From the NCBI GenBank assembly GCA_023380475.1, contig JAMCRD010000003.1, positions 28,397-92,396 of the forward strand: a stretch of DNA of 64,000 nucleotides, read 5' to 3'. Below the pieces are notes generated by a model. That model did not search any database. It worked only from the letters and a program-made list of their open reading frames with translations, and was not told the origin of the DNA. This document shows positions 19,999 to 64,000 of the stretch, in pieces. Position numbers and translations under genes: made by a program. Origin of the DNA: Patescibacteria group bacterium. Lineage in GTDB: Bacteria > Patescibacteriota > Minisyncoccia > UBA6257 > Colwellbacteraceae. The first letter of the stretch is position 1. Every line of letters begins with the position of its first letter.

Positions 19999-20023
19999 AC
20001 AACAATTGTTGTATAATTAAGCT

Positions 20024-48877: not shown

Positions 48878-50024
48878 GTTGAGAGTATTGATGACTGGCG
48901 GCGGGACAGGCGGGCATATTTATCCGCTGGTCTCGGTTGCGGCTGAGCTTCAAGTATTGGCCGCCGAGAAGAAAATCAGCTTGGATATCCATTACCTCGG
49001 TGCCTTCGGACCGTTCCAAGAACTGCTCGAGCTAAACGGCTTGAAAGTAGGCCGCATCGCCGATAGCAGACTGAGACGTTATTTTTCGATGCGCAATTTC
49101 ATAGACGTTCCGAAATTTGGCTACAGCTTATTGCAAGCTGCCTTCAAGATGTTTTGGTTCATGCCAGATGTAGTTTTCTCGAAAGGCGGACCCGGAGCGC
49201 TGGCAGTTGTCTTGATTGCTCGCTTCTACCGGATACCGGTAATAATCCATGAGTCCGATTCTGTGCCAGGACTTACTAACCTTATCTCCGGTAAGTATGC
49301 CAATGTAATCGCGACTTCTTTCGAGTCCGCTTCGGTCTATTTCCCAAGCGATAAAATAGTGCTGACCGGCAACCCCATCCGCCGCTATATGCTGGAAGAT
49401 TTTAAAAAGGAATCGGTTAGCCGTAACAAGGGATTCCTCGGCTTCGATCCTTCTTTGCCTCTCATAACCGTGATGGGTGGTTCGCAAGGAGCTGCGGCTC
49501 TAAACGACTTCGTCATCGGACATCTGCGGGAGATATTGAATATAACGCAGGTTTTGCACCAAACAGGAACGGCCAACTACGACGATGTTGTGTCTAAACT
49601 TGAATCAGCCTCGGCGGGAATCGATAACGATCTGCTCAAACGCTACCGTCCCGTCGCTTATCTCAAAAATGATCTACGAGCTGCCTTTATCGCTTCTGAT
49701 TTGGTAGTCAGCCGCGCCAGCGGCGGCGGCATATTTGAACTGGCCGCTTTTGGAAAACCATCTATCCTCATACCACTGCCGTCGGACGTGGCCGCCGGAG
49801 ACCACCAGACCAAGAACGCTGCCGATTACTGCCAGACCGGTGCGGCTGTGATGGTGAAGCAGGACGAAATGCCCAGCCGTCTACTCAAAGAGGTTCAAAG
49901 ACTGCTAGCATCGCCGGCGGAATTAAATCAAATGAGTCAGGCAGCCACACGTTTTTCTAAGCCTGAGGCCGCTTTAAATATAGCCGAAACCGTCCTAAAA
50001 TTAGGAGGTTATGGTGAGAGTTAG
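48870..50024 (+). CDS. murG: UDP-GlcNAc:lipid I N-acetylglucosaminyltransferase MurG
   Basis: N-terminus TGGGTGGHIYP, IHESDSVPG and C-terminal SRASGGGIFELAA. Confidence 0.9.
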   Translation: MSKLRVLMTGGGTGGHIYPLVSVAAELQVLAAEKKISLDIHYLGAFGPFQELLELNGLKVGRIADSRLRRYFSMRNFIDVPKFGYSLLQAAFKMFWFMPDVVFSKGGPGALAVVLIARFYRIPVIIHESDSVPGLTNLISGKYANVIATSFESASVYFPSDKIVLTGNPIRRYMLEDFKKESVSRNKGFLGFDPSLPLITVMGGSQGAAALNDFVIGHLREILNITQVLHQTGTANYDDVVSKLESASAGIDNDLLKRYRPVAYLKNDLRAAFIASDLVVSRASGGGIFELAAFGKPSILIPLPSDVAAGDHQTKNAADYCQTGAAVMVKQDEMPSRLLKEVQRLLASPAELNQMSQAATRFSKPEAALNIAETVLKLGGYGES

Positions 50025-51402
50025 ATTCGCGCCTTCTCCGACAGGTTCATTGCATATCGGAGGAGCGCGCACAGCGCTATTTAACTGGCTGCACGCGAAA
50101 TCGCAGGGCGGTCATTTTATCCTTCGGATTGAAGACACGGACCGCGAGCGGTCCACCCCTGAGTCCGAGGCGGACATTTTGGAGGGGCTGTCTTGGCTAG
50201 GGATAACCTGGGACGAGTTCTACCGCCAGAGCGATCGGATTGGGATCTATCGCGAGTATCTTAAAAAACTTATTGATGACGACAAAGCGTATTACTGCTT
50301 CTGTTCCAAGGAAGACCTGGAGGCTGAACGGCAGGCGTTGGTAGCTCAAGGTTTTCCTCCCAAATATTCCGGCCGATGTCGCGCCCTCTCAAAAGAAGAG
50401 GTAGTCAAACGACTTAACGAAAATAAAGAACACGTCATCCGTTTCAAAGTACCCGAAAGGGAAGTGGTGTTTAAGGACTTAATAAGAGGCCAAGTGAAGT
50501 TCGACGCCTCGCTGTCGGGCGACGTCATAATCGCCAAAAATCTGGACCAGCCACTGTACAACTTTGCGGTAACTGTCGACGACTTTCTGATGGGTATAAC
50601 ACATGTGATCAGGGGAGAGGAGCACCTCTCGAACACGCCTAAACAGATACTGCTGGCTGAGGCTATGGGCATGAACGCACCGCAATTCGCACATCTTCCT
50701 CTCATCTTAAATACTGACCGCAGCAAGATGTCCAAGCGTATGTCTGACGTCGCCTTGCATGACTATCGTAACAAAGGCTATCTACCGCAAGCGATAGTCA
50801 ATTTTATATCCTTCCTAGGATGGCATCCCAGGGAGGACAAAGATATGATGAGTCTCGACCAGATCACATCCGAATTTGAGCTTAACCGCGTTCAGAAAGG
50901 CGGAGCTATATTCAATGTAGATAAATTGGATTGGCTGAACGCTCACTATATCAACAGCCTGACTCCTGAAGAGCTAGCCGGGATGGCTAAGCCCTTCATG
51001 CCTGAAGGGTACGAACTGACAATCGCGATGGCGGCCAGTGTAAAAGGGAGAATAAAAACCTTGGCTGAGATACAAGGCATAGTTGATTTGTTCTTCAAGC
51101 TGCCGGCGTATGATACTGAATTATTAAAATGGAAAGACATGCCGCTTTCACAGGTGACCTCTAACCTGGAGTCAGCTTTAACCGTGCTAAATAAAATAGG
51201 CGAGAGTGACTACAACCAAGCTAATCTCGAGAAGGTTTTATCACCGCTGGCACCGGAAGGGAATAGGGGAGAACTCTTCTGGCCGCTAAGAGTTGCTCTC
51301 TCGGGCAGTAAAGCTTCTCCCGGTCCATTCGAGATAATGGAAGTCTTGGGTAAACAGGAAAGCCTCTCCAGAATAGAGAAAGCCATCACTAAAGCTAGAT
51401 AA
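50011..51402 (+). CDS. gltX: Glutamyl-tRNA synthetase
   Basis: [22 protein letters not shown] (HIGH) and KMSKR (KMSKS) motifs. Confidence 0.93.
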   Translation: [463 protein letters not shown]

Positions 51403-51404
51403 AC

Positions 51405-52682
51405 ATGGTTCGTAAAATCATCCATAGCAGAGAAATGGCCAAGTTCCTGACCGCGACGGTTCTGCTGGTTAATCTCGCTACGCCTTTTACAGCGGCAGCT
51501 CAAACCGTGACGACTCAACCCACAGCTGCCTCCACCGCATCCCTGCAATCCGAGATCGACGCCAACAATCAGGCAATAGCTAACCTAAATGCACAGATAG
51601 CCCAGTATCAAGCTGAGATCCAGCAGGCTGGAGAAAACAAGAAGACTCTTCAGGCAGCCATCAATTCCCTCAACCTGCAACGCAAAAAGATACAAACACA
51701 AATATACGTCACTAAAGCCCAGATTAGTACCACCAACATCCAGATCCAGCAACTCGGCGACAGTATAGCCAGCACTACACAGATAATCGCCTCCGAGCAG
51801 GAAGCACTAGCCGCAGATATGCGTCTCTTAGAACAAGCTGATAATCAGGAACCACTAGCGATAATATTGTCTTCCGGCACTCTAGACCAAGCCTGGACCA
51901 ACGCTAACGCGGCTCTTCAAATTCAGGAAGCGATTCAAGAAAAGATGACTGCACTTAGGGCTCAAGAAGATAGCCTTACGACTTCCCAAACTGCTTCCCA
52001 AGTTAAACAGGCGACGCTTTCTTCACAGCAACAAACCCTGACCAAACAACAGCAGACCCTGACTGATACAGAAAAATCTAAGACTCGGCTGTTGTCCGAA
52101 ACGAACGCGCAAGAGTCCGTGTATGAACAACTCCTTGCCTCAGCCGAAGAGCAACTCAACAGCATTTCAACATTTTCAAAAAACGCTGGGGGATCAGGAA
52201 TCCTAGGAGATCAAACCCGATGCGATGCTTGGGGGTGCTATTATAACCAGCGCGATGCCGCCTGGGGCAGCGATCCGCTGGACGGCACGAGCTATACTCT
52301 CGCCAGCGATGGTTGCCTAGTAACTTCGGTGGCCATGGTCCTGACTCACTACGGCTATCACAATGTCACACCCGTGACTATAAATACCAACCCCAACAAC
52401 TTTGCGCCATACTTCCCAGCTTATTTGCTGACCACCATAAACGTTGATGGGACTACAGTCACCAGAGTCAGAGCGGCGATTGATGCCACACTGGCCACCG
52501 GTAACCCGGTGATAGTTGGCTTGCATGCCTACGGCGGCACCCACTTTGTAGTTTTGGTGAGCGGCAGCAAGGGTAATTACATCATGCGCGACCCATACAT
52601 AGAAAACGGCGACAATATTCTATTTGCAGATCACTATTCCCTAAGGAGCGTCTTTGCGGTAACCAAGGTACAAATAAGCTGA
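51405..52682 (+). CDS. Secreted coiled-coil protein with C-terminal papain-like (C39-like) cysteine peptidase domain, PcsB-like architecture
   Basis: Signal peptide ending FTAAAQ and a Q-rich coiled coil of about 230 aa. The C-terminal domain has candidate Cys (DGCLVTSVAMVL) and His (GGTHFVVLV). Confidence 0.6.
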   Translation: MVRKIIHSREMAKFLTATVLLVNLATPFTAAAQTVTTQPTAASTASLQSEIDANNQAIANLNAQIAQYQAEIQQAGENKKTLQAAINSLNLQRKKIQTQIYVTKAQISTTNIQIQQLGDSIASTTQIIASEQEALAADMRLLEQADNQEPLAIILSSGTLDQAWTNANAALQIQEAIQEKMTALRAQEDSLTTSQTASQVKQATLSSQQQTLTKQQQTLTDTEKSKTRLLSETNAQESVYEQLLASAEEQLNSISTFSKNAGGSGILGDQTRCDAWGCYYNQRDAAWGSDPLDGTSYTLASDGCLVTSVAMVLTHYGYHNVTPVTINTNPNNFAPYFPAYLLTTINVDGTTVTRVRAAIDATLATGNPVIVGLHAYGGTHFVVLVSGSKGNYIMRDPYIENGDNILFADHYSLRSVFAVTKVQIS

Positions 52683-52719
52683 TTTCCCATTTAAGACTAT
52701 ATATGCTATACTCTGTCAA

Positions 52720-52872
52720 ATGGGTTTGCAGACGCTGATAAACAATGTGACATCCACCGCTGCTACCATAATTGGTCCGGCCAAAACTATTCTCGTGTCT
52801 GTAACTCAGATCATCGTACAGATATTGCAATACATTGTTTACCTTCTTAATTTACTGATATCTAAGCTATAG
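52720..52872 (+). CDS. 50-aa hydrophobic micro-ORF (tentative)
   Basis: MGLQTLINNVTSTAATIIGPAKTILVSVTQIIVQILQYIVYLLNLLISKL. TATACT ends 7 nt before the ATG, and a terminator follows at 52892-52920. Confidence 0.3.
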   Translation: MGLQTLINNVTSTAATIIGPAKTILVSVTQIIVQILQYIVYLLNLLISKL

Positions 52873-52891
52873 CAAGATACCTACAAATAAC

Positions 52892-52920
52892 AAAACAGTC
52901 CTCCAAGAGGGGACTGTTTT
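52892..52920 (+). terminator. Intrinsic terminator
   Basis: AAAACAGTCC-tccaagagg-GGACTGTTTT. Confidence 0.75.
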
Positions 52921-52940
52921 TAGTATGGTATGATAAACCA

Positions 52941-53618
52941 ATGTTCACTCCTATAAGGAAAGTAAACGGGATATCTTATGAAAGAATAGCTGTTAAGACA
53001 CATCTGATAAGATTCGGGGAAAATCTTATAGGACTCCTCAAAAAATATGTTTCACCTGTTTTGAAGCCGGGGGATTGGTTAGCACTTTCTGAAAAAGTTG
53101 TGTCGGTAACGCAAAACAATATCCGCCATATTTCGACTGTAAAAGTTAGTTGGCTAGCCAAATTGATTGTGAGGGGAGTGAAGAAATACCCCGATGACAA
53201 AGGATGGGACAATCCTGAGAAAATGCAGGTAGCAATAGAAATGGCTGGTTATCCAAGAGCTATCCTAGCAATGTTGCTCGGCGGCATCGGGAAGGTGTTC
53301 CATATCCGTGGCATCTTCTGGACTGTCTTAGGGCACCGCGCTGGAGAACTTGATGGCTTCAATCCAGTGGTTCTTCAACCGTATCGAGAAAACGTCGCTC
53401 TACCGCCATCGCATCCAAGAGAAATGTGCGAAAGGATTGAACGAGAATTGGGCGCACCGGCAGTGATCATAGACGGCAATAACATCAATGTTAAAGTCAT
53501 CGCGATGAGCCACGGCATGCCAGTAAACACTAAGTTCGCTAGATTGGTGCTCTTGGACAATCCCATGGGGCAGGAAGATGAACTAACCCCCTTCATAATT
53601 GTGCGTAAGAAAGATTAA
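52941..53618 (+). CDS. CofE-like (F420-0:gamma-glutamyl ligase family) protein
   Basis: Family-like pattern: KPGDWLALSEKVVSVTQ, IIDGNN and a C-terminal NPMGQEDELTPFIIVRK (compare ..MGEGG.GIP.VVVRG). Confidence 0.5.
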   Translation: MFTPIRKVNGISYERIAVKTHLIRFGENLIGLLKKYVSPVLKPGDWLALSEKVVSVTQNNIRHISTVKVSWLAKLIVRGVKKYPDDKGWDNPEKMQVAIEMAGYPRAILAMLLGGIGKVFHIRGIFWTVLGHRAGELDGFNPVVLQPYRENVALPPSHPREMCERIERELGAPAVIIDGNNINVKVIAMSHGMPVNTKFARLVLLDNPMGQEDELTPFIIVRKKD

Positions 53619-54226
53619 TGATAATCACCTGGGCCGGCGTAAAGCCTATTTTTGCCATTCTCAGTTTGATCACCACCTTATGGGCTGTACTCCCGTATCT
53701 ACGCGACATATTTCTCAAAAAGACGAAGCCCCATGCTTACACTTGGTTGATCTGGACCATAACCCAAGGCACTGCCGCCGCTGGATTGATATATGGCAAG
53801 GGAGGATGGGGAGGCTTAGAACTGGTTGTTGGTACGGCATTGGTATTCATAATATTTCTTCTGTCTCTAAAATATGGCACACGCAGTATAACTAAAAGTG
53901 ACACCGTGGTGCTCATATTCGCGCTGCTAGCGATTGTAATATGGTGGCAATTACATAACCCGTTCCTTGCCGTGATCATGGTGTCAGCCATAGATTTTGC
54001 CGGCTATATACCAAGTTTCAGAAAAACATTTTATGAACCATGGACCGAGACACCATCTTCTTGGGCAATATTCTCGTTGGGCAATATTTTAAACATACTT
54101 GCTCTCAGCCAATATAATTTCCTGACGCTTACTTATCTTATTACGATTATTATTGCTAACGCAGTACTCTTGGCGGTCTGTCTTATAAGGAGACAAGTTG
54201 TACTCCCTGACGCACCTACTAAATAG
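53618..54226 (+). CDS. Polytopic membrane protein, unknown function
   Basis: 202 aa with about 6-7 TM helices. ATGA overlap with the upstream gene. Confidence 0.55.
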   Translation: MIITWAGVKPIFAILSLITTLWAVLPYLRDIFLKKTKPHAYTWLIWTITQGTAAAGLIYGKGGWGGLELVVGTALVFIIFLLSLKYGTRSITKSDTVVLIFALLAIVIWWQLHNPFLAVIMVSAIDFAGYIPSFRKTFYEPWTETPSSWAIFSLGNILNILALSQYNFLTLTYLITIIIANAVLLAVCLIRRQVVLPDAPTK

Positions 54227-54494
54227 GGGACTTATCTCAACAACCCATTCGGATTTTATATTTACGAAACTCCACGCAGATCTTTTCAGTTCAATTTACT
54301 TTTTCAGAATGTTATGTTGAGCTAACGTTGCTCATCCACATCGGCACGCCTCGCTGACTCTGCTAGAATAGCTACAGGGGAGCAGGTTAAGAACCTAATA
54401 TCAATCGTCGTATAATGGCTTTTATACGGCAAATTGCCCAAAAGAAAGCCACTTCTACTCCCCCCTAGGACAACTTAACACGAATATATGCCAT

Positions 54495-54520
54495 CCCGAC
54501 CTGAAAAGGTCGGGTTTCTT
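54495..54520 (+). terminator. Intrinsic terminator in junction region
   Basis: CCCGACC-tgaaaa-GGTCGGG followed by TTTCTT. A TATAAT lies at 54411-54416, about 80 nt upstream. Confidence 0.7.
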
Positions 54521-54545
54521 GGTTTAGAAAGGAAAAAACAATAAG

Positions 54546-54668
54546 ATGGATCGCAACAAAGTCAAGCAGCTAATCGGAGGGCTTACCTTCCTAGCTGCCT
54601 TTTTAATTCTTTCGTACGGTCTGCTGGTCGAGTTGGCAATTCTTAACGCAAGATGGTCTGTAAGATAA
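54546..54668 (+). CDS. 40-aa single-TM micro-ORF (tentative)
   Basis: MDRNKVKQLIGGLTFLAAFLILSYGLLVELAILNARWSVR. Overlaps the next ORF by 16 nt. Confidence 0.3.
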   Translation: MDRNKVKQLIGGLTFLAAFLILSYGLLVELAILNARWSVR

Positions 54669-54895
54669 AGGAAAAGTCCAACCTGTGCATCCACGGCTAT
54701 ACCTATGGATATTGCCCAGGGGGGTGCACGCAGTTCGTCGATACAAGGGAATATCTCAAAGAAAAGCGCCGAGAGTTCCTGAAGTTATGGGGTCCCAAAG
54801 ACTGGACTGACCCTATGACCAAAAAAACAATTTGTCTCAGATTAGTTAATTACGACAGATTGATCCGGATGGCGCCAGGAGTCGAAGCAAATTAA
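54653..54895 (+). CDS. Phage hypothetical protein, Cys-rich
   Basis: 80 aa, with C..C...C...C in its first 25 residues. No recognisable family. Confidence 0.45.
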   Translation: MVCKIKEKSNLCIHGYTYGYCPGGCTQFVDTREYLKEKRREFLKLWGPKDWTDPMTKKTICLRLVNYDRLIRMAPGVEAN

Positions 54896-54905
54896 CAACG
54901 GTCTC

Positions 54906-55002
54906 AATCGGGAGGGATGCGATCCCCCTCTAAGCGCTTCATAAGAGTGCCGGGAAGACTAGGAAGTTTAATCGGAGACGGTTGGCTTCCTCTCTCCCGA
55001 TT
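54906..55002 (+). promoter_or_regulatory. Operator-like repeated motif AATCGG(G)AG (two direct copies, one inverted)
   Basis: aatcgggaggga at 54906-54917, aatcggagac at 54970-54979, and an inverted copy tctctcccgatt at 54991-55002, just upstream of the ATG at 55020. Confidence 0.3.
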
Positions 55003-55019
55003 ACCAAGATTAAAAGCAA

Positions 55020-56012
55020 ATGAAAACATACACATACGAACCAACAAAACATCCTAGGCTCTTTCGCGTGGTAGACCGCGAGGGGAATTGGGAAAGGTAT
55101 TTCCTGACCGACCTTGTACCTGAAAAGGGCCGAGAAATATCGACCATGGGCGGAGTTTATCTTCGTGGCGTTACTACCATCCTTGATAAGGGATACGCCA
55201 AAGGAGAAGGTCTGTTACGCTTTCTGTCGCAGCATACCGAATCGGAAAGAGATGAGATCCTAAAGTCGGCTGGCGAGAGAGGTGACAAAGTTCACCGCGC
55301 TATTGCCATGCTCAGCGAAGGCTTAGGAACTCTCAACAAAACCGATGGGGTCTATAACCGTGAGATCAAAGAATACGAACCCTTGAGCAATGAGGAATGG
55401 GATTGTCTATTGGCTTTTGAGAGTTTTTGGAGAAGGCACGAACCGATAGTGTTGCAATCAGAAGCACCACTCTATTCGTTGGAAGGAGGGTACGCTGGGA
55501 CAGCCGATAAGATTTGGATCTTAACGAAAGCCTGTGATGTCAAGATGTGCCCTTGCAAGGACTGGATAAACCTCATCGGTCTGAACGATTACAAGACCAG
55601 TTCTGGTATTTACCCGAGCTACTGGGCTCAAGTCGGAGCCTACGCTAAAGCTGAGAACATCAAAGAGTATCTCCCAACGGGCAGAGTGATTGACTACACC
55701 TCGATCCTGCGGCTTGGCACAAACCACAAAACAACGGGAGGTTATGAGTTTCGGGTCAGCAACAGGCTCGGGGCTCAATATGAGTTGTTTGGGGCAGCCA
55801 AGACGATAGCCAACTATGAGAGCAATGAGTTCGATCCCTCCAAAGAGGTTCAAGAAATTCCTGATTCAATCACCATTGAATTGAAAAAGATGCCGGAGTC
55901 CGTCGAAACTCCCAAAGTCGAAAAGAAAAATGGAAAAGGTAAAAGAAATCAACCAAAAGCTGGGCGTAGTGCCAAAGCTAAGGCTGGGCACGCAGCAACC
56001 AGCCAAAAGTAA
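55020..56012 (+). CDS. Phage PD-(D/E)XK (RecB/Cas4-like) exonuclease
   Basis: Motifs GYAGTADKIW, LNDYKTSSG and QVGAYAKA (a QxxxY-type motif). Lys-rich tail. Confidence 0.65.
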   Translation: MKTYTYEPTKHPRLFRVVDREGNWERYFLTDLVPEKGREISTMGGVYLRGVTTILDKGYAKGEGLLRFLSQHTESERDEILKSAGERGDKVHRAIAMLSEGLGTLNKTDGVYNREIKEYEPLSNEEWDCLLAFESFWRRHEPIVLQSEAPLYSLEGGYAGTADKIWILTKACDVKMCPCKDWINLIGLNDYKTSSGIYPSYWAQVGAYAKAENIKEYLPTGRVIDYTSILRLGTNHKTTGGYEFRVSNRLGAQYELFGAAKTIANYESNEFDPSKEVQEIPDSITIELKKMPESVETPKVEKKNGKGKRNQPKAGRSAKAKAGHAATSQK

Positions 56013-56421
56013 GGACGGCAAGATCTACAACGCCATTGTTCCTAATGGTCCGCATCGATTAAAGTTTTTGGACGAACCAGTCGTCATTATAGCTAACATC
56101 AACGGTAAACCTGGGAAGGTCTTGAAATTCACAGTCGAAGAGAACGGCCAGAAGTTTCGTTGGATAGTAAAAATACTAAACGCCGAGGGACAGCCCAATT
56201 ATCTATTGGAACATCTTGAGCCTGTTATGGTCGGCGAGGAAAGAATAGTGGAGATGAAAAACAAGGGCGCTCGCAAGTTCATCGAGATCAGGAAGGTTGG
56301 AGAGGAATCAGCCTCGGAGGATGAAACCGATGAGATAGTCGATTACAAGGAGGATGAGGGATTGTCCGAAGACGAACTCAACGAGATGAGTCGCAGGGCC
56401 AAAGAAGATCTGAAAGAATGA
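55930..56421 (+). CDS. Phage protein with acidic C-terminal tail (possible SSB-like)
   Basis: 163 aa with a beta-rich core and a tail EESASEDETDEIVDYKEDEGLSEDEL. The start is uncertain because of an 83-nt overlap with the upstream ORF. Confidence 0.4.
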   Translation: MEKVKEINQKLGVVPKLRLGTQQPAKSKDGKIYNAIVPNGPHRLKFLDEPVVIIANINGKPGKVLKFTVEENGQKFRWIVKILNAEGQPNYLLEHLEPVMVGEERIVEMKNKGARKFIEIRKVGEESASEDETDEIVDYKEDEGLSEDELNEMSRRAKEDLKE

Positions 56422-56603
56422 AAGCCTATCTCATACAAATTGAAGTGCGTCTTTCCTCCAAATCATATTTTCAGACACTGGGAGAGTCGCGACAGAATTG
56501 CAGCTCAGCGGAGACCGCCTCCAGTAGGGCTTTGAGAGAACTCAGACATGAATTGAAAGGTCGGAGGATAGCCGAGTACAAGATCCATATCACCAAGTGC
56601 TAG
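56418..56603 (+). CDS. Phage hypothetical protein
   Basis: 61 aa with an ATGA-type overlap with the upstream gene. Confidence 0.4.
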   Translation: MKAYLIQIEVRLSSKSYFQTLGESRQNCSSAETASSRALRELRHELKGRRIAEYKIHITKC

Positions 56604-56702
56604 TTATCTGACTGGGGCGTCCGGGCCAGATTAAGATCAACACTCCAAGTATCTCGATCTCATCGGCGTCTTGGTCAAGGAGAATAAGCAAAAGGGGAAG
56701 CG

Positions 56703-57185
56703 ATGTACTACATAAATATATCAAACGGTCTGCTTAAAGATTCCCACCGTACAAGGATGGGAGAGGCTATTTGGGAGTTCATGTGGTTATTGGATCGTAT
56801 GACTAGCGAGAGCGAGGATGGCATAGGGAAAGTCTTGGGGGGCAGGCCGATAAAGATTGATGAAATAGCCTGTGGATTTCCTGTGCATAGGACAACGGTG
56901 ATCCGCAATCTCAAACGCTTGGAGAATGAAGGATACATCAACGTTATTCGGGCTCCTTACGGATTAGTGATAACTGTGAATAAAGCCAAGAAAAAGCTAG
57001 TGAGAGATGTTGCGAGTTTGCACAGAGATATAGCGGATACGCAACATCTAATTAGATATAGCAAAGACGCAACATCTAATAATACTAAACACTACTTAAC
57101 AAAGACTAAACAGTCGGCACGCCCTGCGGGCGTCGATGTTAAACCCCTTGAAGGCGTAAGAGGGGGAGGATTAAGGCATATATGA
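56703..57185 (+). CDS. Winged-helix DNA-binding protein (replication-initiator or regulator-like)
   Basis: The segment IDEIACGFPVHRTTVIRNLKRLENEGYINVIR is a wHTH recognition helix plus wing. Confidence 0.55.
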   Translation: MYYINISNGLLKDSHRTRMGEAIWEFMWLLDRMTSESEDGIGKVLGGRPIKIDEIACGFPVHRTTVIRNLKRLENEGYINVIRAPYGLVITVNKAKKKLVRDVASLHRDIADTQHLIRYSKDATSNNTKHYLTKTKQSARPAGVDVKPLEGVRGGGLRHI

Positions 57186-57279
57186 ACCAAATGCCCGAAA
57201 AATACGTTACGGGCAGTTAACAAAACTCTAGGCGGTTCGTCGATGCCGATTAATCAAGAATCAAAAGTCAAAAAACAAA

Positions 57280-57756
57280 ATGAACAAAAACGACATAAAC
57301 AACAACTGGGTAGAAATAGGATACAAGCAAATCCCCCAAAAGGTTTTCGACAAATACGGAGTCAAGCCGTTCGAGATAATGAAACGGAAGATGCGCAAAA
57401 AAGAGGGTCAAGTCTGGAACCTCATCTCTTACAATGACGCCAAAGAAGAAGCCGAGCGACGGGGCTGCCGTCTTCCCTCCGTTCAGGAGATGCTGGTACT
57501 GCTCGAATGGTACAAGCACGAGAAGGGGAACAAGGCGAATATCAGAGACAATCAATTTCTGGGCATAGAGGAGCTTTCATATAAGGAGTTTGTCTATCTG
57601 GAATGGGTGGAAGGACTAATTCCGTACCTTCGCGGTGGCGATTGGGGTAATGGCTCGGGTGGTGGGCCGTTCACGTTGAACCTGGATTGGGGCGCGGGCA
57701 CTACGAGCACCTATGTGGGTTTCCGCTGTGCCCGCAGCCGTAGAAATCCGAAATAA
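57280..57756 (+). CDS. C-type-lectin-fold (DUF1566 / FGE-sulfatase-like) domain protein
   Basis: SYNDAKEEAERRGCRLPSVQEMLVLL, and a C-terminal RGGDWGNGSGGG...YVGFRCAR resembling CLec-fold ligand-binding ends. Confidence 0.5.
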   Translation: MNKNDINNNWVEIGYKQIPQKVFDKYGVKPFEIMKRKMRKKEGQVWNLISYNDAKEEAERRGCRLPSVQEMLVLLEWYKHEKGNKANIRDNQFLGIEELSYKEFVYLEWVEGLIPYLRGGDWGNGSGGGPFTLNLDWGAGTTSTYVGFRCARSRRNPK

Positions 57757-57763
57757 AACGAAG

Positions 57764-58153
57764 ATGGAGCTTAAATTGACCCAACACGACATAATCAGGA
57801 ACTACCTCGACGGGAAGGGATGGGTGTACGAGTACAAAATCCGAGGGCTGGACACCGAGTGGGGCTTCATCGGGGCCAGAGGGGACAGGGACGTAAGGCA
57901 GATGATAAGGAACGGGGAACTGGAAGCCTCCTTTAACGGCAAATACCGAATAGTCAGATTGAAAAGGTCGCCGAGTCCAAGAGAACTAGCGGATGAACTC
58001 AACCAAGAAATTGAGGAGAAAGGCGGACAGGTTGTGGCAGATAAAATGCCAAGCCCTATCAAAGAGGTGTCTGGTATGCGGACGGCCGACGCAGGTATGC
58101 CATCACTTTTTCCCGAAGAGCATAGCGGCATCTCTTCGCTACGACATTTCTAA
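57764..58153 (+). CDS. Phage hypothetical protein
   Basis: MELKLTQHDIIRNYLDGKGWVYEYKIRG... The last 161 nt overlap the next gene in another frame. Confidence 0.4.
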   Translation: MELKLTQHDIIRNYLDGKGWVYEYKIRGLDTEWGFIGARGDRDVRQMIRNGELEASFNGKYRIVRLKRSPSPRELADELNQEIEEKGGQVVADKMPSPIKEVSGMRTADAGMPSLFPEEHSGISSLRHF

Positions 58154-58370
58154 CGGCGTTCCGTTATGCAACGTTTGCCATTTCAAGCTGCACAACGGAG
58201 ACCCCACCGTGGGGGCGAAGATACTGGAATTGAGGGGAGCAAAATGGCTGGAGGGATTGGAAGAGCGGCGCAAGGGGAAGGTCAGACCGACGGTGGGATA
58301 TTTCGAGAAAGTCATCGCCGACCTGTCTAACGAGACTGACGAGAAACAAAGAAAGGACAAAGAAAAATGA
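57993..58370 (+). CDS. NinG-like / HNH-type zinc-binding protein
   Basis: KKLRRKADRLWQIKC..CLVCGRPTQVCHHFFPKS...NGVPLCNVCHFKLH. Confidence 0.5.
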   Translation: MNSTKKLRRKADRLWQIKCQALSKRCLVCGRPTQVCHHFFPKSIAASLRYDISNGVPLCNVCHFKLHNGDPTVGAKILELRGAKWLEGLEERRKGKVRPTVGYFEKVIADLSNETDEKQRKDKEK

Positions 58371-58522
58371 AACAAAAAATGAAGAGGCTCACGGTGTGGG
58401 TAACGACGGAGAATCTGAAGCAGCTCGCCAAACTCGCCAGGGAGTCCAACAAGTCTCGGGTAATCAGGGGTTTAATCGTAAAGGCCGCAGGTGGGGGTTC
58501 CCAGTCGGAAAAGGTACGGTAA
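58367..58522 (+). CDS. Ribbon-helix-helix (CopG-like) protein, 51 aa (not in ORF track)
   Basis: MKQKMKRLTVWVTTENLKQLAKLARESNKSRVIRGLIVKA shows a beta-strand, helix, helix pattern. ATGA overlap with the upstream stop. Confidence 0.5.
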   Translation: MKQKMKRLTVWVTTENLKQLAKLARESNKSRVIRGLIVKAAGGGSQSEKVR

Positions 58523-58562
58523 AGACAAAAACAAAAGAGATGGACGATAATAAATTAGAAAA

Positions 58563-59009
58563 ATGAGGCAAATTAAATCAGCATTGGGAGAAGTATTGAA
58601 ACTCCTCAACAAGTCCTATAAAGATCAGGAAATCCGTGTTTGCGACAACTGTGGAGTCCCATTGATATGGACTTTTTGTTGGGCGTATCGCGAGAGATAC
58701 TGTCTCAACTGTGGGATAAGTGGCGCAATGCTGGGGACTGGCGAAGATGTGGAATTAACCAGCGAATTGAAGTATGAGGCAAGGGTGATAGATGACATCT
58801 GGAAAGCAATCTACAAAAATCTAGTGCCGCGTTCATCTTACAAACGGAATGGATGTAAGAAGTGTGAGGGAGAAGATCATAACAAACACCTCTCAAGGTC
58901 CGAAATTTTTAGAGATAAAACAGCGACGGAAATTCTCAAAAAATTAGCGGAGGGCTTCACCGTTAAAAGAGAAATTTTAGAAAGAGGATTATATCAGGGA
59001 CAAGTTTAG
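58563..59009 (+). CDS. Phage zinc-finger protein
   Basis: 148 aa with CDNCG...CLNCG and CKKCEGEDH. Confidence 0.45.
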   Translation: MRQIKSALGEVLKLLNKSYKDQEIRVCDNCGVPLIWTFCWAYRERYCLNCGISGAMLGTGEDVELTSELKYEARVIDDIWKAIYKNLVPRSSYKRNGCKKCEGEDHNKHLSRSEIFRDKTATEILKKLAEGFTVKREILERGLYQGQV

Positions 59010-59042
59010 GAACTGTCCGGAAAACATAATTAAGCCGAAAGG

Positions 59043-59249
59043 ATGGTAAAAACCGTTTACGGCATGAAATCTAAAATGACCGACCAAGAGTTCAAGGAAA
59101 AATGTGAGAAACATAGGGAAAAGCTTAAGGTGCTATTGAACTCCGGCTTCTTTGAGCTCAAAAATACCAAGGTCGAGGTGAACTTCGGGCCAAAGGGAGA
59201 GATAGGGGATTGGTCTATTGTCCGGCAGAGTGTGTACAAACGACCATGA
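59043..59249 (+). CDS. Phage hypothetical protein
   Basis: 68 aa ORF. Its 3' end carries a TGTACA-17-TATAAT promoter-like site (59232-59260). Confidence 0.4.
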   Translation: MVKTVYGMKSKMTDQEFKEKCEKHREKLKVLLNSGFFELKNTKVEVNFGPKGEIGDWSIVRQSVYKRP

Positions 59250-59340
59250 ATATGCTATAATACTCAAAACTGAATAAGTAAAAGTCCCAAGCGATAATAA
59301 GCCGGACATCTCGCAATGAGGTGGCCGGTATTTCATTTTT

Positions 59341-59778
59341 ATGGGAGCACCAAAGGGAAATCAATACGCAAAAGGAAATAAGGGAGGGCGCCCTCCGAAA
59401 GTAGAGCCGCAAAATCTTCCCGCGTTCGGTGAAGAACTGGTGTCATGGGCAACTCGGAAATACCAGACGCTTCTTTCGGCGCCCGACAAGGAGGCAAAAA
59501 TGCCCTTCTTCATCAAGACGTTCTGTCGGGAGTATAAAATATCGGAAGACACGCTCCAAGCGTACAGGGAGGCAAATAAAGAGTTTTCCGCCTCGTATAA
59601 GCAGGCAAGACAGATTATTGCTGAAGCACTCATGGTTGGAGCACTCAAGGGATGGTGGCATCCGACCGCTTTTATCTTCATCGCCAAGAATGAAACCGAA
59701 ATGAGAGATAACTCGTCGGTTGATCTCACATCGGGCGGAGAAAAGATTACGGTCAACCTGGTCGAATTCAAAAGATGA
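59341..59778 (+). CDS. Terminase small subunit
   Basis: N-terminus MGAPKGNQYAKGNKGGRPPK is typical of TerS HTH-type proteins. Lies upstream of TerL. Confidence 0.65.
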   Translation: MGAPKGNQYAKGNKGGRPPKVEPQNLPAFGEELVSWATRKYQTLLSAPDKEAKMPFFIKTFCREYKISEDTLQAYREANKEFSASYKQARQIIAEALMVGALKGWWHPTAFIFIAKNETEMRDNSSVDLTSGGEKITVNLVEFKR

Positions 59779-60314
59779 AACTCTCGGTTTTAATCTGTTC
59801 TTTGTCTTCACGAGGCGAGCATCTCGCCAAGTTGCTTTCGATCTTGTTTCCCCAAATTCAGGAGGAGACTGAAATTATCGTTTCCATTGACGACGGAGGA
59901 CAAAAAATAGGTGTCAAACGCAATAGGTTGATGGCATCGGCACTGGGCCAGTATGTCTGTTTTATCGATGACGATGACGAGGTGAGCGACGACTATATTG
60001 CCCAGATTATGACCGGCATCGAATCCGGTGCCGACCACGTGGCAATAGGCGGCATTATGACGACGAATGGCAGAGAACCACACGAATTCAGAAGCTCGAA
60101 GGATTATGTCTGGCATGAAAAAGACGGCGTCTATTATCGCGGCGTCCAGCATCTGGGAGTGATTAAGCGTGATCTGGTACTTCAATGTCCCTTCCCTCCG
60201 ATCAGTTTCGGGGAAGACCGCGAATTCAGCGAGAGGGTAACGCCGCTAATCAAGACAGAGTACCAAATCCAAAAGCCGATTTACTTCTATCGATACCGGA
60301 ACCCGAAATGCTGA
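59775..60314 (+). CDS. Glycosyltransferase family 2 (small, phage-encoded)
   Basis: LSVLICSLSSR.., KRNRLMASALGQYVCFIDDDDEV (DxD) and FGEDREF. ATGA overlap with TerS. Confidence 0.75.
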   Translation: MKLSVLICSLSSRGEHLAKLLSILFPQIQEETEIIVSIDDGGQKIGVKRNRLMASALGQYVCFIDDDDEVSDDYIAQIMTGIESGADHVAIGGIMTTNGREPHEFRSSKDYVWHEKDGVYYRGVQHLGVIKRDLVLQCPFPPISFGEDREFSERVTPLIKTEYQIQKPIYFYRYRNPKC

Positions 60315-60964
60315 GTGTCATAATGCCGGTCTATAATCACGTTCTCTACACCTATCGGGCCGTAGAGTCGCTCCTTGAACACACTGCTGCGCCAGCTAGG
60401 CTCATTATGATTGACGATGGCTCGACCGATGATACGCATGATTACGCTATGGAACTTTCGGATCGGCTGAAAGAGAGATTTTATTATGGCCGAAACCAAA
60501 AGAATGAGGGTGTCCACTACAGCTGGAATGCAGGACTACGCGCCGCTTTCGACCAGAATTCAGATTATATCGCCATTGTGAATAACGATGTCCTCTTCAC
60601 AAAGAACTGGGATTCGCCCCTCATCAATGCCCTAAAAACGAAGAAGCTTGTGAGTCCATATCATACGGATGGCTCATTGCCGGATGATTGGCCGTCCGGG
60701 AGCCGCAGGATTGCGAACCAGGGTAACTTGCCGATTCTGGGCGCTTGTTTCATGGCACAAACGCAGACATTCAGGGATGTGGGCTTTTTCCCCGAACAAA
60801 TGCGGTACTACTTCGGAGACAACTGGCTGGTGCGACAGGTCGGGGAACAGCAATGTACCCAGGTGCCCGAAAGCTACATCCATCACTATTTCTCGAAAAC
60901 AACGAGTGAACTTCAGAATGATTTTTGGTTCAAAAAAGACCAAGAAGAATACTTGCGGCTATGA
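60308..60964 (+). CDS. Glycosyltransferase family 2 (second, phage-encoded)
   Basis: MLSVIMPVYNH..LIMIDDGSTDDT..IAIVNNDV. ATG 60308 overlaps the upstream stop by 7 nt. The track start at 60185 is out of context. Confidence 0.75.
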   Translation: MLSVIMPVYNHVLYTYRAVESLLEHTAAPARLIMIDDGSTDDTHDYAMELSDRLKERFYYGRNQKNEGVHYSWNAGLRAAFDQNSDYIAIVNNDVLFTKNWDSPLINALKTKKLVSPYHTDGSLPDDWPSGSRRIANQGNLPILGACFMAQTQTFRDVGFFPEQMRYYFGDNWLVRQVGEQQCTQVPESYIHHYFSKTTSELQNDFWFKKDQEEYLRL

Positions 60965-62241
60965 CAATTCAATTCCCCACCCAAGAATTTATCGACTCTA
61001 TACGACCTTACCAATCCGAGTACCTTTCGTCTCCCCAGAAGAATAACGTGCTTATGTGGCACAGAGGCAGCCGCAAGACCACGACACTGCTCCAAAAATT
61101 GCTTATTTCAGCGCATCGCGAGGTTGGTCTCTACTGGTATATCGGGCCCTATCTTACCCAGGCGCGATCGACGATATGGACAGACCCAGCAACGCATATT
61201 TTCCGATGGATACCATCGGACTATCTGAAGCGGTTACGCGTCAATAACAGCGAGATGTCGATAACATTCCCGAACGGAAGCGTCTTGCAGGCCAAGGGAA
61301 TGGACAATCCGAATGGACTCCGTGGCCCTAAACCGAAGGGGGTTGTGCTCGACGAATACGGTGAAATGGCGAAGCGGTGGGGCAGCGAACCTCGTGAAGC
61401 CATCATTGAGCCGTCCATGCTCTCGTCGGGGGGCTGGACTGACTACGCGGGGACGCCGAAAGGAAACAATGATCTTGCGCACCTTTTACGGCGGCAGGAT
61501 TATTTCGCGTCTCTCAAAACAGTCGAAGATACGGGTGTGTATTTGCCGGAGCAGATTGAGGAATTGAAGCGGAATGCCGTCAATATAGATTTCTTTTGGC
61601 AAGAATACTACTGCAAAATCATCGAGGGAGCCTCAAGCGTTTTCAAAGACATCGAGAATGCCGTCTCGGGAGAACTGGAGAAGCCGCAGAGTGGCGAGGA
61701 GTATCTTTTTGGAATTGATTTAGCGCGGAGTTTTGACGCGACTGTCCTCGTCGGTTTCAAAATATCCACCAATCATCTCGTGTACTACGAGAGGATAAAA
61801 GATAGAACGTGGGAAGCGCAGAAAAACCTCATCGCCGGTACGCTCGCTTCGTACCATGGCGCGCGGGCTATTGTTGACGCAACGGGTGTGGGCGATAGTT
61901 TCACAGAAGAGTTGATGAGGATGGGACTCAATATCATGCCTCTTAAGATCGCCAATAACCTCATTAAGCGGAATCTGGTCGAAAAACTCGGTTCTTACCT
62001 TGAAAACAGATACATCACCATTCCCAGCATTCAAGAAATGATTGACGAATTGAAAAATTACGAGTATGTGCTTACGGCAAGTAACAATATCGTTTACTCG
62101 GCCCCATCCGGCAAGCACGACGATGTCGTAATGGCGTTGGCGCTGGCAGTTTCAGCTCTCAATCCCACGCCTTTCGTTGTTTCCCAAAATGCTTTTGTTC
62201 CGCCGGTTACTATCGACCCCAGAACGGGTTATATTGTATGA
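60961..62241 (+). CDS. Terminase large subunit
   Basis: Walker A-like HRGSRKTT, Walker B VVLDEYGE, and nuclease motifs GIDLARSFDATV and GKHDDVVMALALA. ATGA overlap with the GT2 gene. Confidence 0.85.
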   Translation: MTIQFPTQEFIDSIRPYQSEYLSSPQKNNVLMWHRGSRKTTTLLQKLLISAHREVGLYWYIGPYLTQARSTIWTDPATHIFRWIPSDYLKRLRVNNSEMSITFPNGSVLQAKGMDNPNGLRGPKPKGVVLDEYGEMAKRWGSEPREAIIEPSMLSSGGWTDYAGTPKGNNDLAHLLRRQDYFASLKTVEDTGVYLPEQIEELKRNAVNIDFFWQEYYCKIIEGASSVFKDIENAVSGELEKPQSGEEYLFGIDLARSFDATVLVGFKISTNHLVYYERIKDRTWEAQKNLIAGTLASYHGARAIVDATGVGDSFTEELMRMGLNIMPLKIANNLIKRNLVEKLGSYLENRYITIPSIQEMIDELKNYEYVLTASNNIVYSAPSGKHDDVVMALALAVSALNPTPFVVSQNAFVPPVTIDPRTGYIV

Positions 62242-62432
62242 ACGAAGAACTACGTTGCAAATTATGCGGTAAATTGTTGGGCAAGGGATTGCAGTTAGGG
62301 GGCATTGTAGCCATCAAGTGCCATCGGTGCGGTACCATCACGGAGTTCGGGAATAAAATCGTCCACTATATCGTTCGTACCGAAGCGGGCGAGGAGTTAG
62401 GGCTCTTGACACTGAAAAATAAAAAGATATAA
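62238..62432 (+). CDS. Com-like zinc-finger protein
   Basis: LRCKLCGKLLGKG...IKCHRCGT resembles the Mu Com pattern RC..C.KLL...I.C.RC. Confidence 0.5.
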   Translation: MNEELRCKLCGKLLGKGLQLGGIVAIKCHRCGTITEFGNKIVHYIVRTEAGEELGLLTLKNKKI

Positions 62433-62468
62433 TGACAATATAAAATAATAAGTTTTGAGTGCCTTTGA

Positions 62469-62491
62469 GCGCCAGAAGTGGCGCTTTTTTT
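62469..62491 (+). terminator. Hairpin plus T-run between the Com-like gene and portal
   Basis: GCGCCA-gaag-TGGCGC followed by TTTTTTT. Confidence 0.7.
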
Positions 62492-62496
62492 GTTGT

Positions 62497-64000
62497 ATGA
62501 AAAAACCATCGGCACAAGAAATACTCAATCAATTTCGCATCGAGAAACAGGCAGCCTCGAAGACTCGGCAGTCGAAGATGTCCCATTGGCTCCAAAATGA
62601 GGAGCTTCACAATGGCGTTATTCAGCGAACTCTTTTGACGAAATCAAATCTTCATGTCCCGAAAGTGTTTGAGGGGGTACAAGATATGGCGTCCCGTCTC
62701 GGGGAGTTACCGACTATCGAATACGACACAAAGCCGGAAGGCGATGAAAATGCAGCAGATCTCATGAAGCATCTGTTCTTGTATGACGGCAGGAAATCAG
62801 ATTTGGAACACTTATGGGAACTGTCAAAAATCGAAGCGGGTCTCTATGGGCGTCCCATTTACAAACTGTTTCCATCACCGAACGGCGTCGCTTTCCAGCT
62901 TATCGATACGATGAGTTTTCTCATTTCTCCGCTTTCGCCGACGATAGATTCCGCGCTTTATTGCGGTCAGCAATTCATCTATAAGACGGCAGCGCAGCTG
63001 ATGGAGGAGGCCGAAGAATACGGTTACGACAAGAAAGAGGTGATGAAGGCTCGCAAAGCCGTGGCCGAAACCATCTCATCGGAAAATCCGGAAGTGAGCC
63101 AGCGCAACCTGCGGCTTGCCTATCTCGGTTTTGACAATGTGAACCTCGCAGGAGCGAAAGTCATCGAACTCACGGAATGGTACACGCATCTTGTGAACGA
63201 AAAGGGGTTGCCGGAAAAATATCTTCTCACCGTCGCGAACGACCAGTTCCTGCTTCGCGCCATTCCGATAACTGAAGCGGGGTTTGAGGATAAATTCCCG
63301 TTTATTTCGCGGGCGCTTTTCCCGCGTCTCGTCTCGTTCTGGGTTCCGTCAGTCGCGGATATCTATCGCGATCCGAACTTGGCGATGGATGTGATTATGA
63401 ATCAGAACATCGACAATAATACCTACCGCAATTTCGGGATGCTCTTTGTCGATTCGGCCAGCGGTCTCAAGCAATCCGCTGTCGTTCCGCGCCCCCTCGG
63501 CGTTGTACCGATCAATGTCGGAGCGAAATCGGTTAAGGACGCCGTGCTGCCATATAATCCGCCGGATATTTCGCAATCTACCGCCTTATCCAGCCAGATT
63601 GAAACGCTCTCTGACAATGCGGCCGGTCTCGGTTTCGTGCTTCCCATGGGACGGGCAAAAATGTCGGTCTCCCAATTAAACCTCGAAATGTCGCTCATTG
63701 AACAGCGATTAAGCACGTCAAAGATGAACCTCATCGCGATGGCAAAGGATATGGGCCAGATGTACGCCGATCTCATCAAGAAGAACCTTACGACTCCCCG
63801 GGCAGTCAAAACCTTCGGCATGAAAGACCTCACTATCTCAGGAGTTACGAAAGCGAACTTTAAGGGCGTTGACTTCATTGCAAAGGCGACTGCGAAGGAG
63901 AATGTCCAGCAAAACAAGGCGCTCTGGCAGAAATCAATTCAGGCTCTCTTCGCGATGTTCAAGGACGACCAGAACATCCCCAATCAGCGCTATCTCCGCG
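62497..64000 (+). CDS. Portal protein, 3' end outside window
   Basis: Frame open from ATG 62497 to the window end, about 500 codons by hand translation (MKKPSAQEILNQFRIEKQAASKTRQSKMSHW...). It lies right after TerL and is absent from the track because it has no stop. Confidence 0.65.
   Translation, partial: MKKPSAQEILNQFRIEKQAASKTRQSKMSHWLQNEELHNGVIQRTLLTKSNLHVPKVFEGVQDMASRLGELPTIEYDTKPEGDENAADLMKHLFLYDGRKSDLEHLWELSKIEAGLYGRPIYKLFPSPNGVAFQLIDTMSFLISPLSPTIDSALYCGQQFIYKTAAQLMEEAEEYGYDKKEVMKARKAVAETISSENPEVSQRNLRLAYLGFDNVNLAGAKVIELTEWYTHLVNEKGLPEKYLLTVANDQFLLRAIPITEAGFEDKFPFISRALFPRLVSFWVPSVADIYRDPNLAMDVIMNQNIDNNTYRNFGMLFVDSASGLKQSAVVPRPLGVVPINVGAKSVKDAVLPYNPPDISQSTALSSQIETLSDNAAGLGFVLPMGRAKMSVSQLNLEMSLIEQRLSTSKMNLIAMAKDMGQMYADLIKKNLTTPRAVKTFGMKDLTISGVTKANFKGVDFIAKATAKENVQQNKALWQKSIQALFAMFKDDQNIPNQRYLR

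Follow-up and report, generated by a model that had tools for sequence, protein, structure and literature searches.

What does a pair of glycosyltransferase (GT) genes do between the two terminase genes of a prophage, and which molecules do their products modify? The question is raised by an element at the 3' end of a 64,000-nt stretch of DNA from a Patescibacteria group bacterium (assembly GCA_023380475.1, contig JAMCRD010000003.1), here called the window, whose positions are used as coordinates throughout; contigs of relatives carry L-numbers. Our study places the two genes, GT2-A and GT2-B, in one gap-free unit of five genes, and our sequence comparisons indicate that the junction in which they lie is a cargo slot whose contents differ among related phages. 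Virion proteins are, tentatively, our favoured targets for the two enzymes. The members of the unit are the following:

59341..59778, + strand: TerS, small terminase subunit, 145 aa
59775..60314, + strand: GT2-A, minimal glycosyltransferase of GT-A fold, 179 aa
60308..60964, + strand: GT2-B, glycosyltransferase of GT-A fold, 218 aa
60961..62241, + strand: TerL, large terminase subunit, 426 aa
62238..62432, + strand: Com-like zinc-ribbon gene, 64 aa, last gene of the tight unit

Direct reading of the sequence confirmed the coordinates of the first four genes and the overlaps of 4, 7 and 4 nt between them that had been given in an earlier note on this DNA. The stop codon of TerS (TGA, 59776-59778) and the start codon of GT2-A (ATG, 59775-59777) share the tetranucleotide ATGA; the start codon of GT2-B (ATG, 60308-60310) precedes the stop codon of GT2-A (TGA, 60312-60314), with 7 nt in common; the stop codon of GT2-B (TGA, 60962-60964) and the start codon of TerL (ATG, 60961-60963) form a second ATGA, and TerL overlaps the Com-like gene by 4 nt in turn. 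It should be considered that the public gene call begins GT2-B 15 nt later, at the second ATG (60323), which gives an 8-nt gap in place of the 7-nt overlap. We prefer the start at 60308, because the relatives begin GT2-B further upstream, with a 4-nt overlap of the GT2-A stop and with the first beta-strand (M..LGIVMPVYN) as part of the protein. In the gene calls of L014, a Logan contig that covers this locus, 4-nt overlaps occur at three of the four junctions from TerS to the Com-like gene; at the fourth, a 7-nt overlap results only if GT2-B starts at 60308. Short overlaps are frequent across the whole compact window, host genes included, and are therefore unremarkable by themselves; they leave no intergenic room, however, for separate signals between the five genes. 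A sequence scan found no convincing promoter or terminator within the GT genes.

Gene content identifies the element that carries this unit as a prophage in a chromosome of the Patescibacteria (Candidate Phyla Radiation, CPR). Host housekeeping genes fill the window from 1 to 54 kb (with ScpA/B, a D-Ala-D-Ala carboxypeptidase, MraY, FtsW, MurG and GluRS between 43 and 54 kb), and the phage genes begin at about 55 kb with an exonuclease, a helix-turn-helix protein and an HNH endonuclease. A protein with exactly the GT2-A sequence has been deposited from a Patescibacteria metagenome-assembled genome, and this record, together with the housekeeping genes, bears out the CPR association that the earlier note had proposed. 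L014 is identical to positions 49987-64000 of the window and extends through the portal, scaffold, capsid, small head-tail genes and fibre-like proteins (L014:17780-18352, 18612-19031 and 19033-20148), so that about 15 kb of the phage (55-64 kb of the window plus L014) is covered. The NCBI contig of the prophage locus ends within TerL. A chimeric join, which had been raised as a possible source of error, is unlikely, because the independent assembly GCA_023476555.1 reproduces the host genes, the junction and the phage genes at 99.46% identity.

The two glycosyltransferases and the slot that holds them

Profile matches upheld the four identities previously assigned to these genes at the level of the family. 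TerL matches phrog_2 at 9e-34 and both Terminase_6N and Terminase_6C above their cut-offs, with at most 30% identity to the nearest TerL of a phage isolate. The predicted TerS, whose misidentification would have reduced the arrangement to GTs that simply precede a packaging module, matches phrog_606 (4.5e-9 over residues 2-136) and, more weakly, four other TerS PHROGs; its score of 23 bits against Pfam PF16677 (GP3_package) lies under the 29-bit cut-off, and sequence and profile searches of the PDB and of NCBIfam returned no match to it. At the same position in the relatives, seven of eight proteins match TerS PHROGs, and a C-terminal motif, D(L/V)TSxGEKITxNL(V/I)(E/D)FK, is shared with the relatives. 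The call therefore holds on these PHROG profiles and on synteny, the gene being immediately upstream of the TerL operon partner. The 64-aa gene matches PF10122 above the cut-off (2.7e-6) and phrog_6417, annotated as 'translational regulator'; it was found in relatives both with and without GTs.

Both GTs match PF00535 above its cut-off of 23.3 bits (36.6 bits for GT2-A; 81.2 bits, E 1e-22, for GT2-B), and GT2-A also matches phrog_8858 (8.5e-35) and phrog_14775 (2.6e-31). Their AlphaFold2 models, with pLDDT values of 96 for GT2-A and 95 for GT2-B, are globular GT-A folds limited to the catalytic domain, without transmembrane segments or hydrophobic C-terminal helices. The invariant residues of the GT2-A family are G46, K48, R49, D65-D68 (the DDDD motif), D87, E147 and D148; those of the GT2-B family are D36, D37, S39, G68 and D94 (the NND94 motif). 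On sequence and model, the two proteins are predicted to be soluble GT-A-fold (GT2) enzymes with intact metal and nucleotide-sugar motifs and with an ED or D as the candidate catalytic base. The closest solved folds to GT2-A are TarS, TarP, SpsA and WrtF, with query-normalised TM-scores of 0.70-0.75 for GT2-A and 0.65-0.73 for GT2-B; the neighbours of GT2-B are generic GT2 enzymes (WrtF, heparosan synthase, ppGalNAc-T and TarS), and PglI-like enzymes, RmlT and chondroitin synthase also appear among the neighbours, all of them generic inverting GT2 enzymes. Such generic neighbours do not separate protein acceptors from polymer acceptors. In NCBIfam, neither GT has an equivalog and every match is far under the cut-off; therefore, we assign no donor or acceptor subfamily to them.

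Two other views of these genes were rejected. A GtrB-like bactoprenol glucosyltransferase, suggested in the earlier note, is ruled out by the lengths of 179 and 218 aa, by the lack of C-terminal transmembrane helices and by a match to phrog_841 (GtrB-like) that covers residues 2-95 only; the GTs are flanked by TerS and TerL, with neither a gtrA flippase nor a gtrC membrane transferase beside them, and the unit contains no membrane-protein genes. A recent frameshift that split one GT gene into two is likewise ruled out, since the split is kept in all five lineages and the frames differ.

The five lineages in question are that of the window and four more (L016-18, L019-21, L022-23 and L115), which come from independent assemblies and present the same order of TerS, GT, GT, TerL, in some cases the Com-like gene, and portal; the arrangement is thus not unique. 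Their homologues are 89%, 75% and 66% identical to GT2-A and 64% to GT2-B. From L016 to L023, the TerS/GT-A, GT-A/GT-B and GT-B/TerL junctions are all 4-nt overlaps; L115 has an overlap only at GT-A/GT-B and a 37-nt gap before TerL. A profile search of genome contigs with the TerL alignment found no relative, and one scan of metagenomes yielded only three short contigs. Compared with L016, the ratio of nonsynonymous to synonymous substitution rates (dN/dS) is 0.16 for GT2-A and 0.22 for GT2-B, against 0.05-0.11 for TerL, portal and capsid; in deeper comparisons of the GTs, the proportion of nonsynonymous differences (pN) is 0.12-0.32, far under the synonymous proportion (pS), whose sites are saturated. 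These substitution patterns indicate that both GTs are under purifying selection. The G+C content at third codon positions is 0.57 in the GTs and 0.53-0.60 in their neighbours. Nucleotide similarity to L016 starts at 59142, just upstream of TerS, and the early genes differ; therefore, the GT pair was inherited with the late module of packaging and head genes.

In further relatives, the space between TerS and TerL has other contents (percentages are TerL identities):

L001 (TerL in the 74-79% range): unrelated 127-aa open reading frame (ORF), L001:1266-1649
L007/L008 (TerL in the 74-79% range): 160-aa ORF that contains CxxC, L008:145-627
L009 (TerL about 76%, partial): membrane peptide of about 50 aa, around 340-490
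L027 (TerL in the 74-79% range): 97-aa zinc-ribbon ORF, which overlaps TerS by 4 nt, and 83-aa ORF, L027:2639-3197
L026 (TerL 53%): empty; TerS overlaps TerL directly

In L027, the 83-aa ORF is similar to the N-terminal half of the 160-aa ORF found in L007/L008. In a neighbour-joining tree of portal proteins, the GT-bearing phages form one clade, sister to a GT-less clade; in the neighbour-joining tree of TerL, the GT-bearing L022 is basal to the GT-bearing and GT-less clades. These comparisons indicate that the TerS-TerL junction is a cargo slot, in which the GT pair has long been kept in one clade and the contents turn over in the sister clade. The variability of the slot implies that the GT pair is stable accessory cargo and is not essential for packaging. 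The earlier view of the GTs as integral to the packaging operon, as opposed to detachable, is thus correct in one part, namely that they have no signals of their own; the other part did not stand, since the slot holds unrelated ORFs in the sister clade and nothing in L026. Coupling to TerS belongs to the slot and not to the GTs. We found no gene specific to GT-bearing phages in the available sequence, in which the GT-bearing contigs other than that of the window end before the fibre genes, and the head and tail modules are collinear with and without GTs.

L026 also presents a 2-kb insert between TerL and portal (L026:4084-6094), with a 263-aa ORF and several small hydrophobic ORFs; its position implies a second variable slot on the other side of TerL.

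What the two enzymes may glycosylate

The link to the glycosylation systems of mycobacteriophages, which the earlier note had drawn by analogy, proved to be one of homology. In the phage isolate collection, the matches of GT2-A are confined to 61 Mycobacterium and Gordonia phages; they span its full length, at about 31-37% identity. The matches include LittleE gp15, a stand-alone protein (35%, end to end), residues 27-211 of Omega gp16 (33%), residues 3-186 of Keelan gp122 (37%), residues 10-183 of Che8 gp108 (31.5% over 184 residues) and the N-terminal domain of Che9d gp109; the E values, 1e-29 to 2e-30 for the N-terminal domains of Omega gp16 and Keelan gp122 and 5e-30 for Che8 gp108, were obtained with a small database. 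GT2-B gives weak matches to the other end of the same proteins: its residues 76-198 align with the C-terminal catalytic domain of Keelan gp122 (residues 274-394; 28%, 4e-10), and it also matches residues 307-419 of Omega gp16 (24%, 8e-7), these C-terminal matches spanning 117-125 residues. Omega gp16 has been described as a two-domain enzyme of which LittleE gp15 and gp17 are the two halves (Pope et al. 2013, PMC3706429). By this alignment, GT2-A and GT2-B appear to correspond to the two catalytic halves of the two-domain actinophage transferases. The C-terminal half of Che8 gp108 looks methyltransferase-like and has no BLAST match to GT2-B, and BLASTP of both GTs against Che8 gp109 and gp110 and Che9d gp110 and gp111 gave nothing significant.

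Outside the isolate collection, a scan of species-representative genomes identified 242 loci of the GT2-A family in many phyla. Several of its members and one relative of GT2-B lie in or beside virion modules. In the row of structural genes of an Erwinia prophage, a multi-domain GT of 686 aa is flanked by a Big_2 protein and by an ORF of 967 aa without family match; a prophage of the Saccharimonadales (CPR) has a GT of the GT2-A family beside the scaffold, capsid and tail-tube genes; on a 99-kb phage contig, a GT2-B relative and sugar-nucleotide genes stand beside a Clp-type protease gene and TerL. Distant GT2-A members are found in glycan clusters of phage contigs, together with other GTs, methyltransferases, NeuB, CMP-sugar synthase and pyruvyl transferase, and one of these clusters directly follows a gpJ-like fibre gene. 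Other members are chromosomal, as in Bacillus, where the gene is located between RNase G and spoIVF/minCD/mreBC, or stand in a context that does not look like a phage, as in the Dependentiae. Of 80 genomic loci with GT2-A, only 5 also have a partner of GT2-B type; with such a low co-occurrence in bacterial genomes, the evidence from fusion rests mainly on the actinophages.

Three considerations led us to favour the glycosylation of virion proteins. First, the homology with the actinophage transferases. Second, the repeated embedding of the relatives in virion modules of unrelated phages: those of cluster J, Erwinia, Saccharimonadales, the gpJ-like fibre gene and the contig with the Clp-type protease and TerL. 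Third, the locus has none of the features of a conversion system, given that it shows no transmembrane segments, no GtrA or GtrC genes and no position typical of lysogenic conversion. The GT pair may therefore be a late-expressed accessory module that a temperate phage of Patescibacteria carries in its terminase operon, in the cargo slot, and that glycosylates virion proteins; we hold this reading tentatively, at somewhat less than an even chance. GT2-A and GT2-B would then be made only from the packaging transcript, by termination and reinitiation of translation, and would be present when and where the terminase is produced. Host nucleotide-sugars would serve as donors, since no sugar-activating genes are located nearby, and the two enzymes would act sequentially, during assembly, to attach a short glycan to an acceptor in the cytoplasm. 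Most probably this acceptor would be a virion protein, capsid or fibre, as in Che8, and the glycan would alter the surface of the particle and would not be needed for assembly. In its most specific form, in which the phage coats its own particle, at the capsid C-terminus SGS[T/S]A or on the fibre, with a short glycan made by a split two-enzyme transferase from the terminase transcript, the proposal is doubtful, although possible.

Several points weigh against virion glycosylation. The acceptor, capsid or fibre, is a candidate only, and late expression is deduced from the position of the genes. A Ser/Thr-rich C-terminal extension on the capsid, which the earlier note had suggested looking for, is absent: the major capsid protein, of HK97 type and 325 aa (L014:15251-16228), ends in ...EVGATLSGSTA. 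The fibre-like proteins contain 18-21% Ser+Thr, and the 6 kb beyond the window contain no recognisable tail-tube gene. The capsid ends in SGS[T/S/G]A in GT-bearing phages and in SGNVA, NGTTA or EGGNA in the others, a difference that is confounded with relatedness. The present prophage has no homologue of Che8 gp109 or of gp110, the latter reported as essential, and gp108 is the only Che8 homologue. Sister phages whose portal and capsid are 74-83% identical do without the GTs. Finally, the GT2-A family is not specific to phages, as its chromosomal members in Bacillus illustrate, and the best matches among solved structures are wall-teichoic-acid transferases.

The last two points lead to the main rival, the remodelling of the host envelope, which we consider possible but rather unlikely. 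The soluble GTs would work at the cytoplasmic face of the membrane and modify a lipid-linked or polymeric glycan (a teichoic-acid-like polymer, an S-layer or a pilin glycan), and the resulting change of the surface during the lytic cycle might serve for instance to block the adsorption of progeny or of competitors to infected cells. The closest folds (TarS, the prophage-encoded TarP, RmlT, PglI-like and O-antigen-type GT2 enzymes) agree with such a role, but they are generic, and 445 viral GT-A models, retrieved in a fold search of BFVD, match equally well. Members of the GT2-A family in the chromosomes of Bacillaceae and Dependentiae are also consistent with it, and surveys have interpreted GTs encoded by CPR viruses as modifiers of the cell surface (PMC11310336, PMC12911398). 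The promoter-like site upstream of TerS would even turn the pair into a conversion function if it were active in lysogens; however, the GTs lie inside a terminase operon without a promoter of their own, the opposite of conversion genes expressed in lysogeny. Neither a flippase (GtrA) nor a membrane GT (GtrC) nor a transmembrane segment accompanies them, and they were inherited with the structural module and not with the upstream early genes, which differ in L016.

It is improbable that the pair acts on some other acceptor, such as a small molecule or a non-virion protein of phage or host, or that it is a decaying passenger, selfish cargo without a role in the phage cycle. The small ORFs of unassigned function that occupy the slot in sister phages would fit such a passenger, as would the low number of loci, already mentioned, in which GT2-A is paired with a GT2-B-type partner; nonetheless, both GTs have remained intact, catalytic motifs included, through synonymous saturation in several lineages; this excludes decay and speaks for a function under selection. 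Glycosylation of DNA, in which sugars added to modified phage bases before or during packaging would protect from restriction, is very improbable and supported by nothing beyond the location in the packaging operon: the Com-like gene of the unit does recall the Mu com-mom DNA-modification unit, in which Com is known, but it is equally present in GT-less relatives; the covered 15 kb or so of the phage revealed no gene for a hydroxymethylase or a thymidylate-synthase-like enzyme; GT2-A and GT2-B have the GT-A fold, not the GT-B fold of the T4 alpha- and beta-glucosyltransferases; and in the actinophages, where their relatives by sequence are found, these GTs have methyltransferase genes or domains and other GTs as neighbours, a setting typical of glycan building.

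Signals and boundaries around the packaging unit

The remaining features around the unit are located as follows:

57993..58370, + strand: HNH endonuclease, upstream of the packaging genes; PF01844, 1.7e-6
59233..59261, + strand: promoter-like site, TGTACA-17-TATAAT with extended -10 TG, 10/12 consensus positions, in the 91-nt gap upstream of TerS
62406..62433, + strand: sigma-70 consensus promoter, TTGACA-16-TATAAT, 12/12, overlapping the 3' end of the Com-like gene
62467..62486, + strand: GC hairpin and U-run, GAGCGCC-loop-GGCGCTTTTTTT, 10 nt before the portal ATG
62497..64000, + strand: portal protein, continuing past the edge of the window; PF23899 SU10_portal, 3.8e-15

The total number of promoter-like sites in the region is not above that of shuffled controls, and therefore only conserved sites carry weight. 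By its position and consensus, the site at 59233-59261 may be the start of the five-gene unit. At the place of the promoter at 62406-62433, the contigs L008, L027, L001 and L022 have TTGACT-17-TATAAT, and this promoter looks as though it sets the packaging unit apart from the head genes. The stem of the hairpin at 62467-62486 is kept in seven relatives and its loop changes; one stem base is altered in L027 (GGTGC, with G-U pairing). Judged by its sequence, the hairpin could act on transcription, as a terminator or an attenuator, or on translation, as an operator. L022 is without the Com gene and without the hairpin. The spacer between the Com-like gene and portal (62406-62496) is conserved in L016, L019, L008, L024, L027 and L001 and also holds a 'GAGTGCC' box; it looks like either a promoter with a leader terminator, in the manner of lambda PR'-tR', or an operator of the Com protein, in the manner of Mu com/mom, for the head genes. 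The portal protein has about 571 aa from the ATG at 62497 in L014, and 585 aa in the public call, which starts at an upstream TTG.

On the host side, about 800 nt of non-coding sequence (54227-55019) separate the last host gene from the exonuclease, the first phage gene, and contain a strong terminator-like hairpin (54495-54514) and several promoter-like sites. This region is the probable left boundary of the prophage, and neither an integrase nor a tRNA was seen on that side. Further into the host genes, a tRNA-Gln (41509-41581, - strand) adjoins a 371-aa ORF (40336-41451, - strand) without Pfam match; the suspicion that this ORF is a tRNA-adjacent integrase was rejected, as nothing supports it. 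Among the first phage genes, a 146-aa ORF (57713-58153) and the HNH endonuclease share about 160 nt in different frames, and the public gene call gives shorter versions of both; probably one of the starts is wrong or one of the ORFs is spurious.

Downstream, in the 267-nt gap after the capsid gene of L014 (L014:16300-16465, at about 66.3 kb if the window is extended), gene calling missed an ORF of about 55 aa, whose predicted product is a small basic protein (MPLTKARKKEVQKTISQNIREFHTGKTY...). Its homologue in L027 (L027:2109-2264) lies just upstream of TerS, and from these differing positions it follows that this small gene has been relocated from one end of the head module to the other. In L027, which is GT-less, the major capsid gene itself is split by an insert of about 670 nt (L027:7715-8384) with a LAGLIDADG-type ORF (LAGIIDGEGT); the insert appears to be group-I-intron-like and is reminiscent of the capsid introns of cluster J mycobacteriophages.

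Comparison with known systems

Glycosyltransferase genes have already been reported as common in the viruses of CPR and DPANN organisms (PMC11310336), and the expectation of a new trait for a CPR-associated phage was thus overstated; GTs that interrupt structural operons of phages were described in 2013 (PMC3706429). What is new here is the TerS-TerL insertion site, the minimal form of two genes, the host phylum for this GT family and a cargo slot with coupled expression, and we regard the GT pair as a modest extension of known biology to a new host phylum and a new insertion site. Virion glycosylation has reportedly been known since 2023, and, to our knowledge, phage-encoded virion glycosylation has so far been shown only for actinobacteriophages. 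If the pair does glycosylate the virion, it would be the first indication outside that group of phages that sugar-coat their own particles, would extend virion glycosylation to the phages of ultra-small episymbiotic bacteria, where a glycan coat might mediate sticking to, or hiding from, the surfaces of host or partner cells, and would constitute a compact two-gene system, dependent on host sugars and readily testable in a heterologous host. Pipelines for auxiliary metabolic genes would by default call GT2-A and GT2-B modifiers of the host surface; that the contents of a cargo slot are expressed by translational coupling and not from signals of their own bears on how accessory genes are recognised in viromes.

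For cluster F mycobacteriophages, Freeman et al. are said to have described in 2023 the genes gp108-gp110 of Che8 as a virion glycosylation cassette. In the Che8 genome, gp111 and an HNH endonuclease lie between this three-GT cassette and the genome end. According to secondary sources, the cassette glycosylates the capsid and the tail tube, and the capsid or tail-tube proteins of Che8, Corndog and Myrna are glycosylated by phage-encoded transferases (PMC12363180, PMC11256854, PMC11600133, PMC10877033), with Che8 gp110 and Corndog gp38 named there as essential transferases (PMC12363180). In related F1 genomes, the terminase genes are reported at the left end (PMC11256854), so circularisation would bring the cassette at the right end of Che8 next to the packaging genes. 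The present prophage resembles Che8 in its homology to the N-terminal part of gp108 and in having an HNH gene, here upstream of TerS; in contrast, it has no homologue of gp109 or gp110, and its capsid is without a long C-terminal Ser/Thr extension.

The GT genes of cluster J mycobacteriophages, represented by Omega and LittleE, form a group that interrupts the virion structure-and-assembly operon (Pope et al. 2013, PMC3706429), as the present pair does, and split and fused forms both exist. Omega gp16 and gp122 of the Gordonia phage Keelan are single polypeptides, whereas here there are two genes, split in all five lineages, as are LittleE gp15 and gp17. In cluster J, however, the GTs are located between the major capsid and head-tail connector genes and are accompanied by further GTs, methyltransferases and a kinase-like gene; the present prophage has only two GT genes, between TerS and TerL, and its host belongs to a different bacterial phylum.

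With the GtrABC and TarP systems, the pair shares the condition of prophage-encoded GT2 enzymes of GT-A fold, TarS and TarP being among its best structural matches. GtrB-type enzymes have C-terminal membrane helices and work with GtrA and GtrC, and TarP and Gtr are conversion genes, expressed in lysogens. GT2-A and GT2-B differ in their lengths, in having neither transmembrane segments nor partner genes and in their place inside a late operon. Finally, the pair resembles a moron in that it lies between genes that are adjacent in a relative (L026), in that sister phages hold other cargo at the same place and in that the conserved packaging and head genes do not depend on this cargo. Unlike a moron, it has no promoter or terminator of its own and no deviant composition; it is coupled to the operon that hosts it and has remained stable in one clade.

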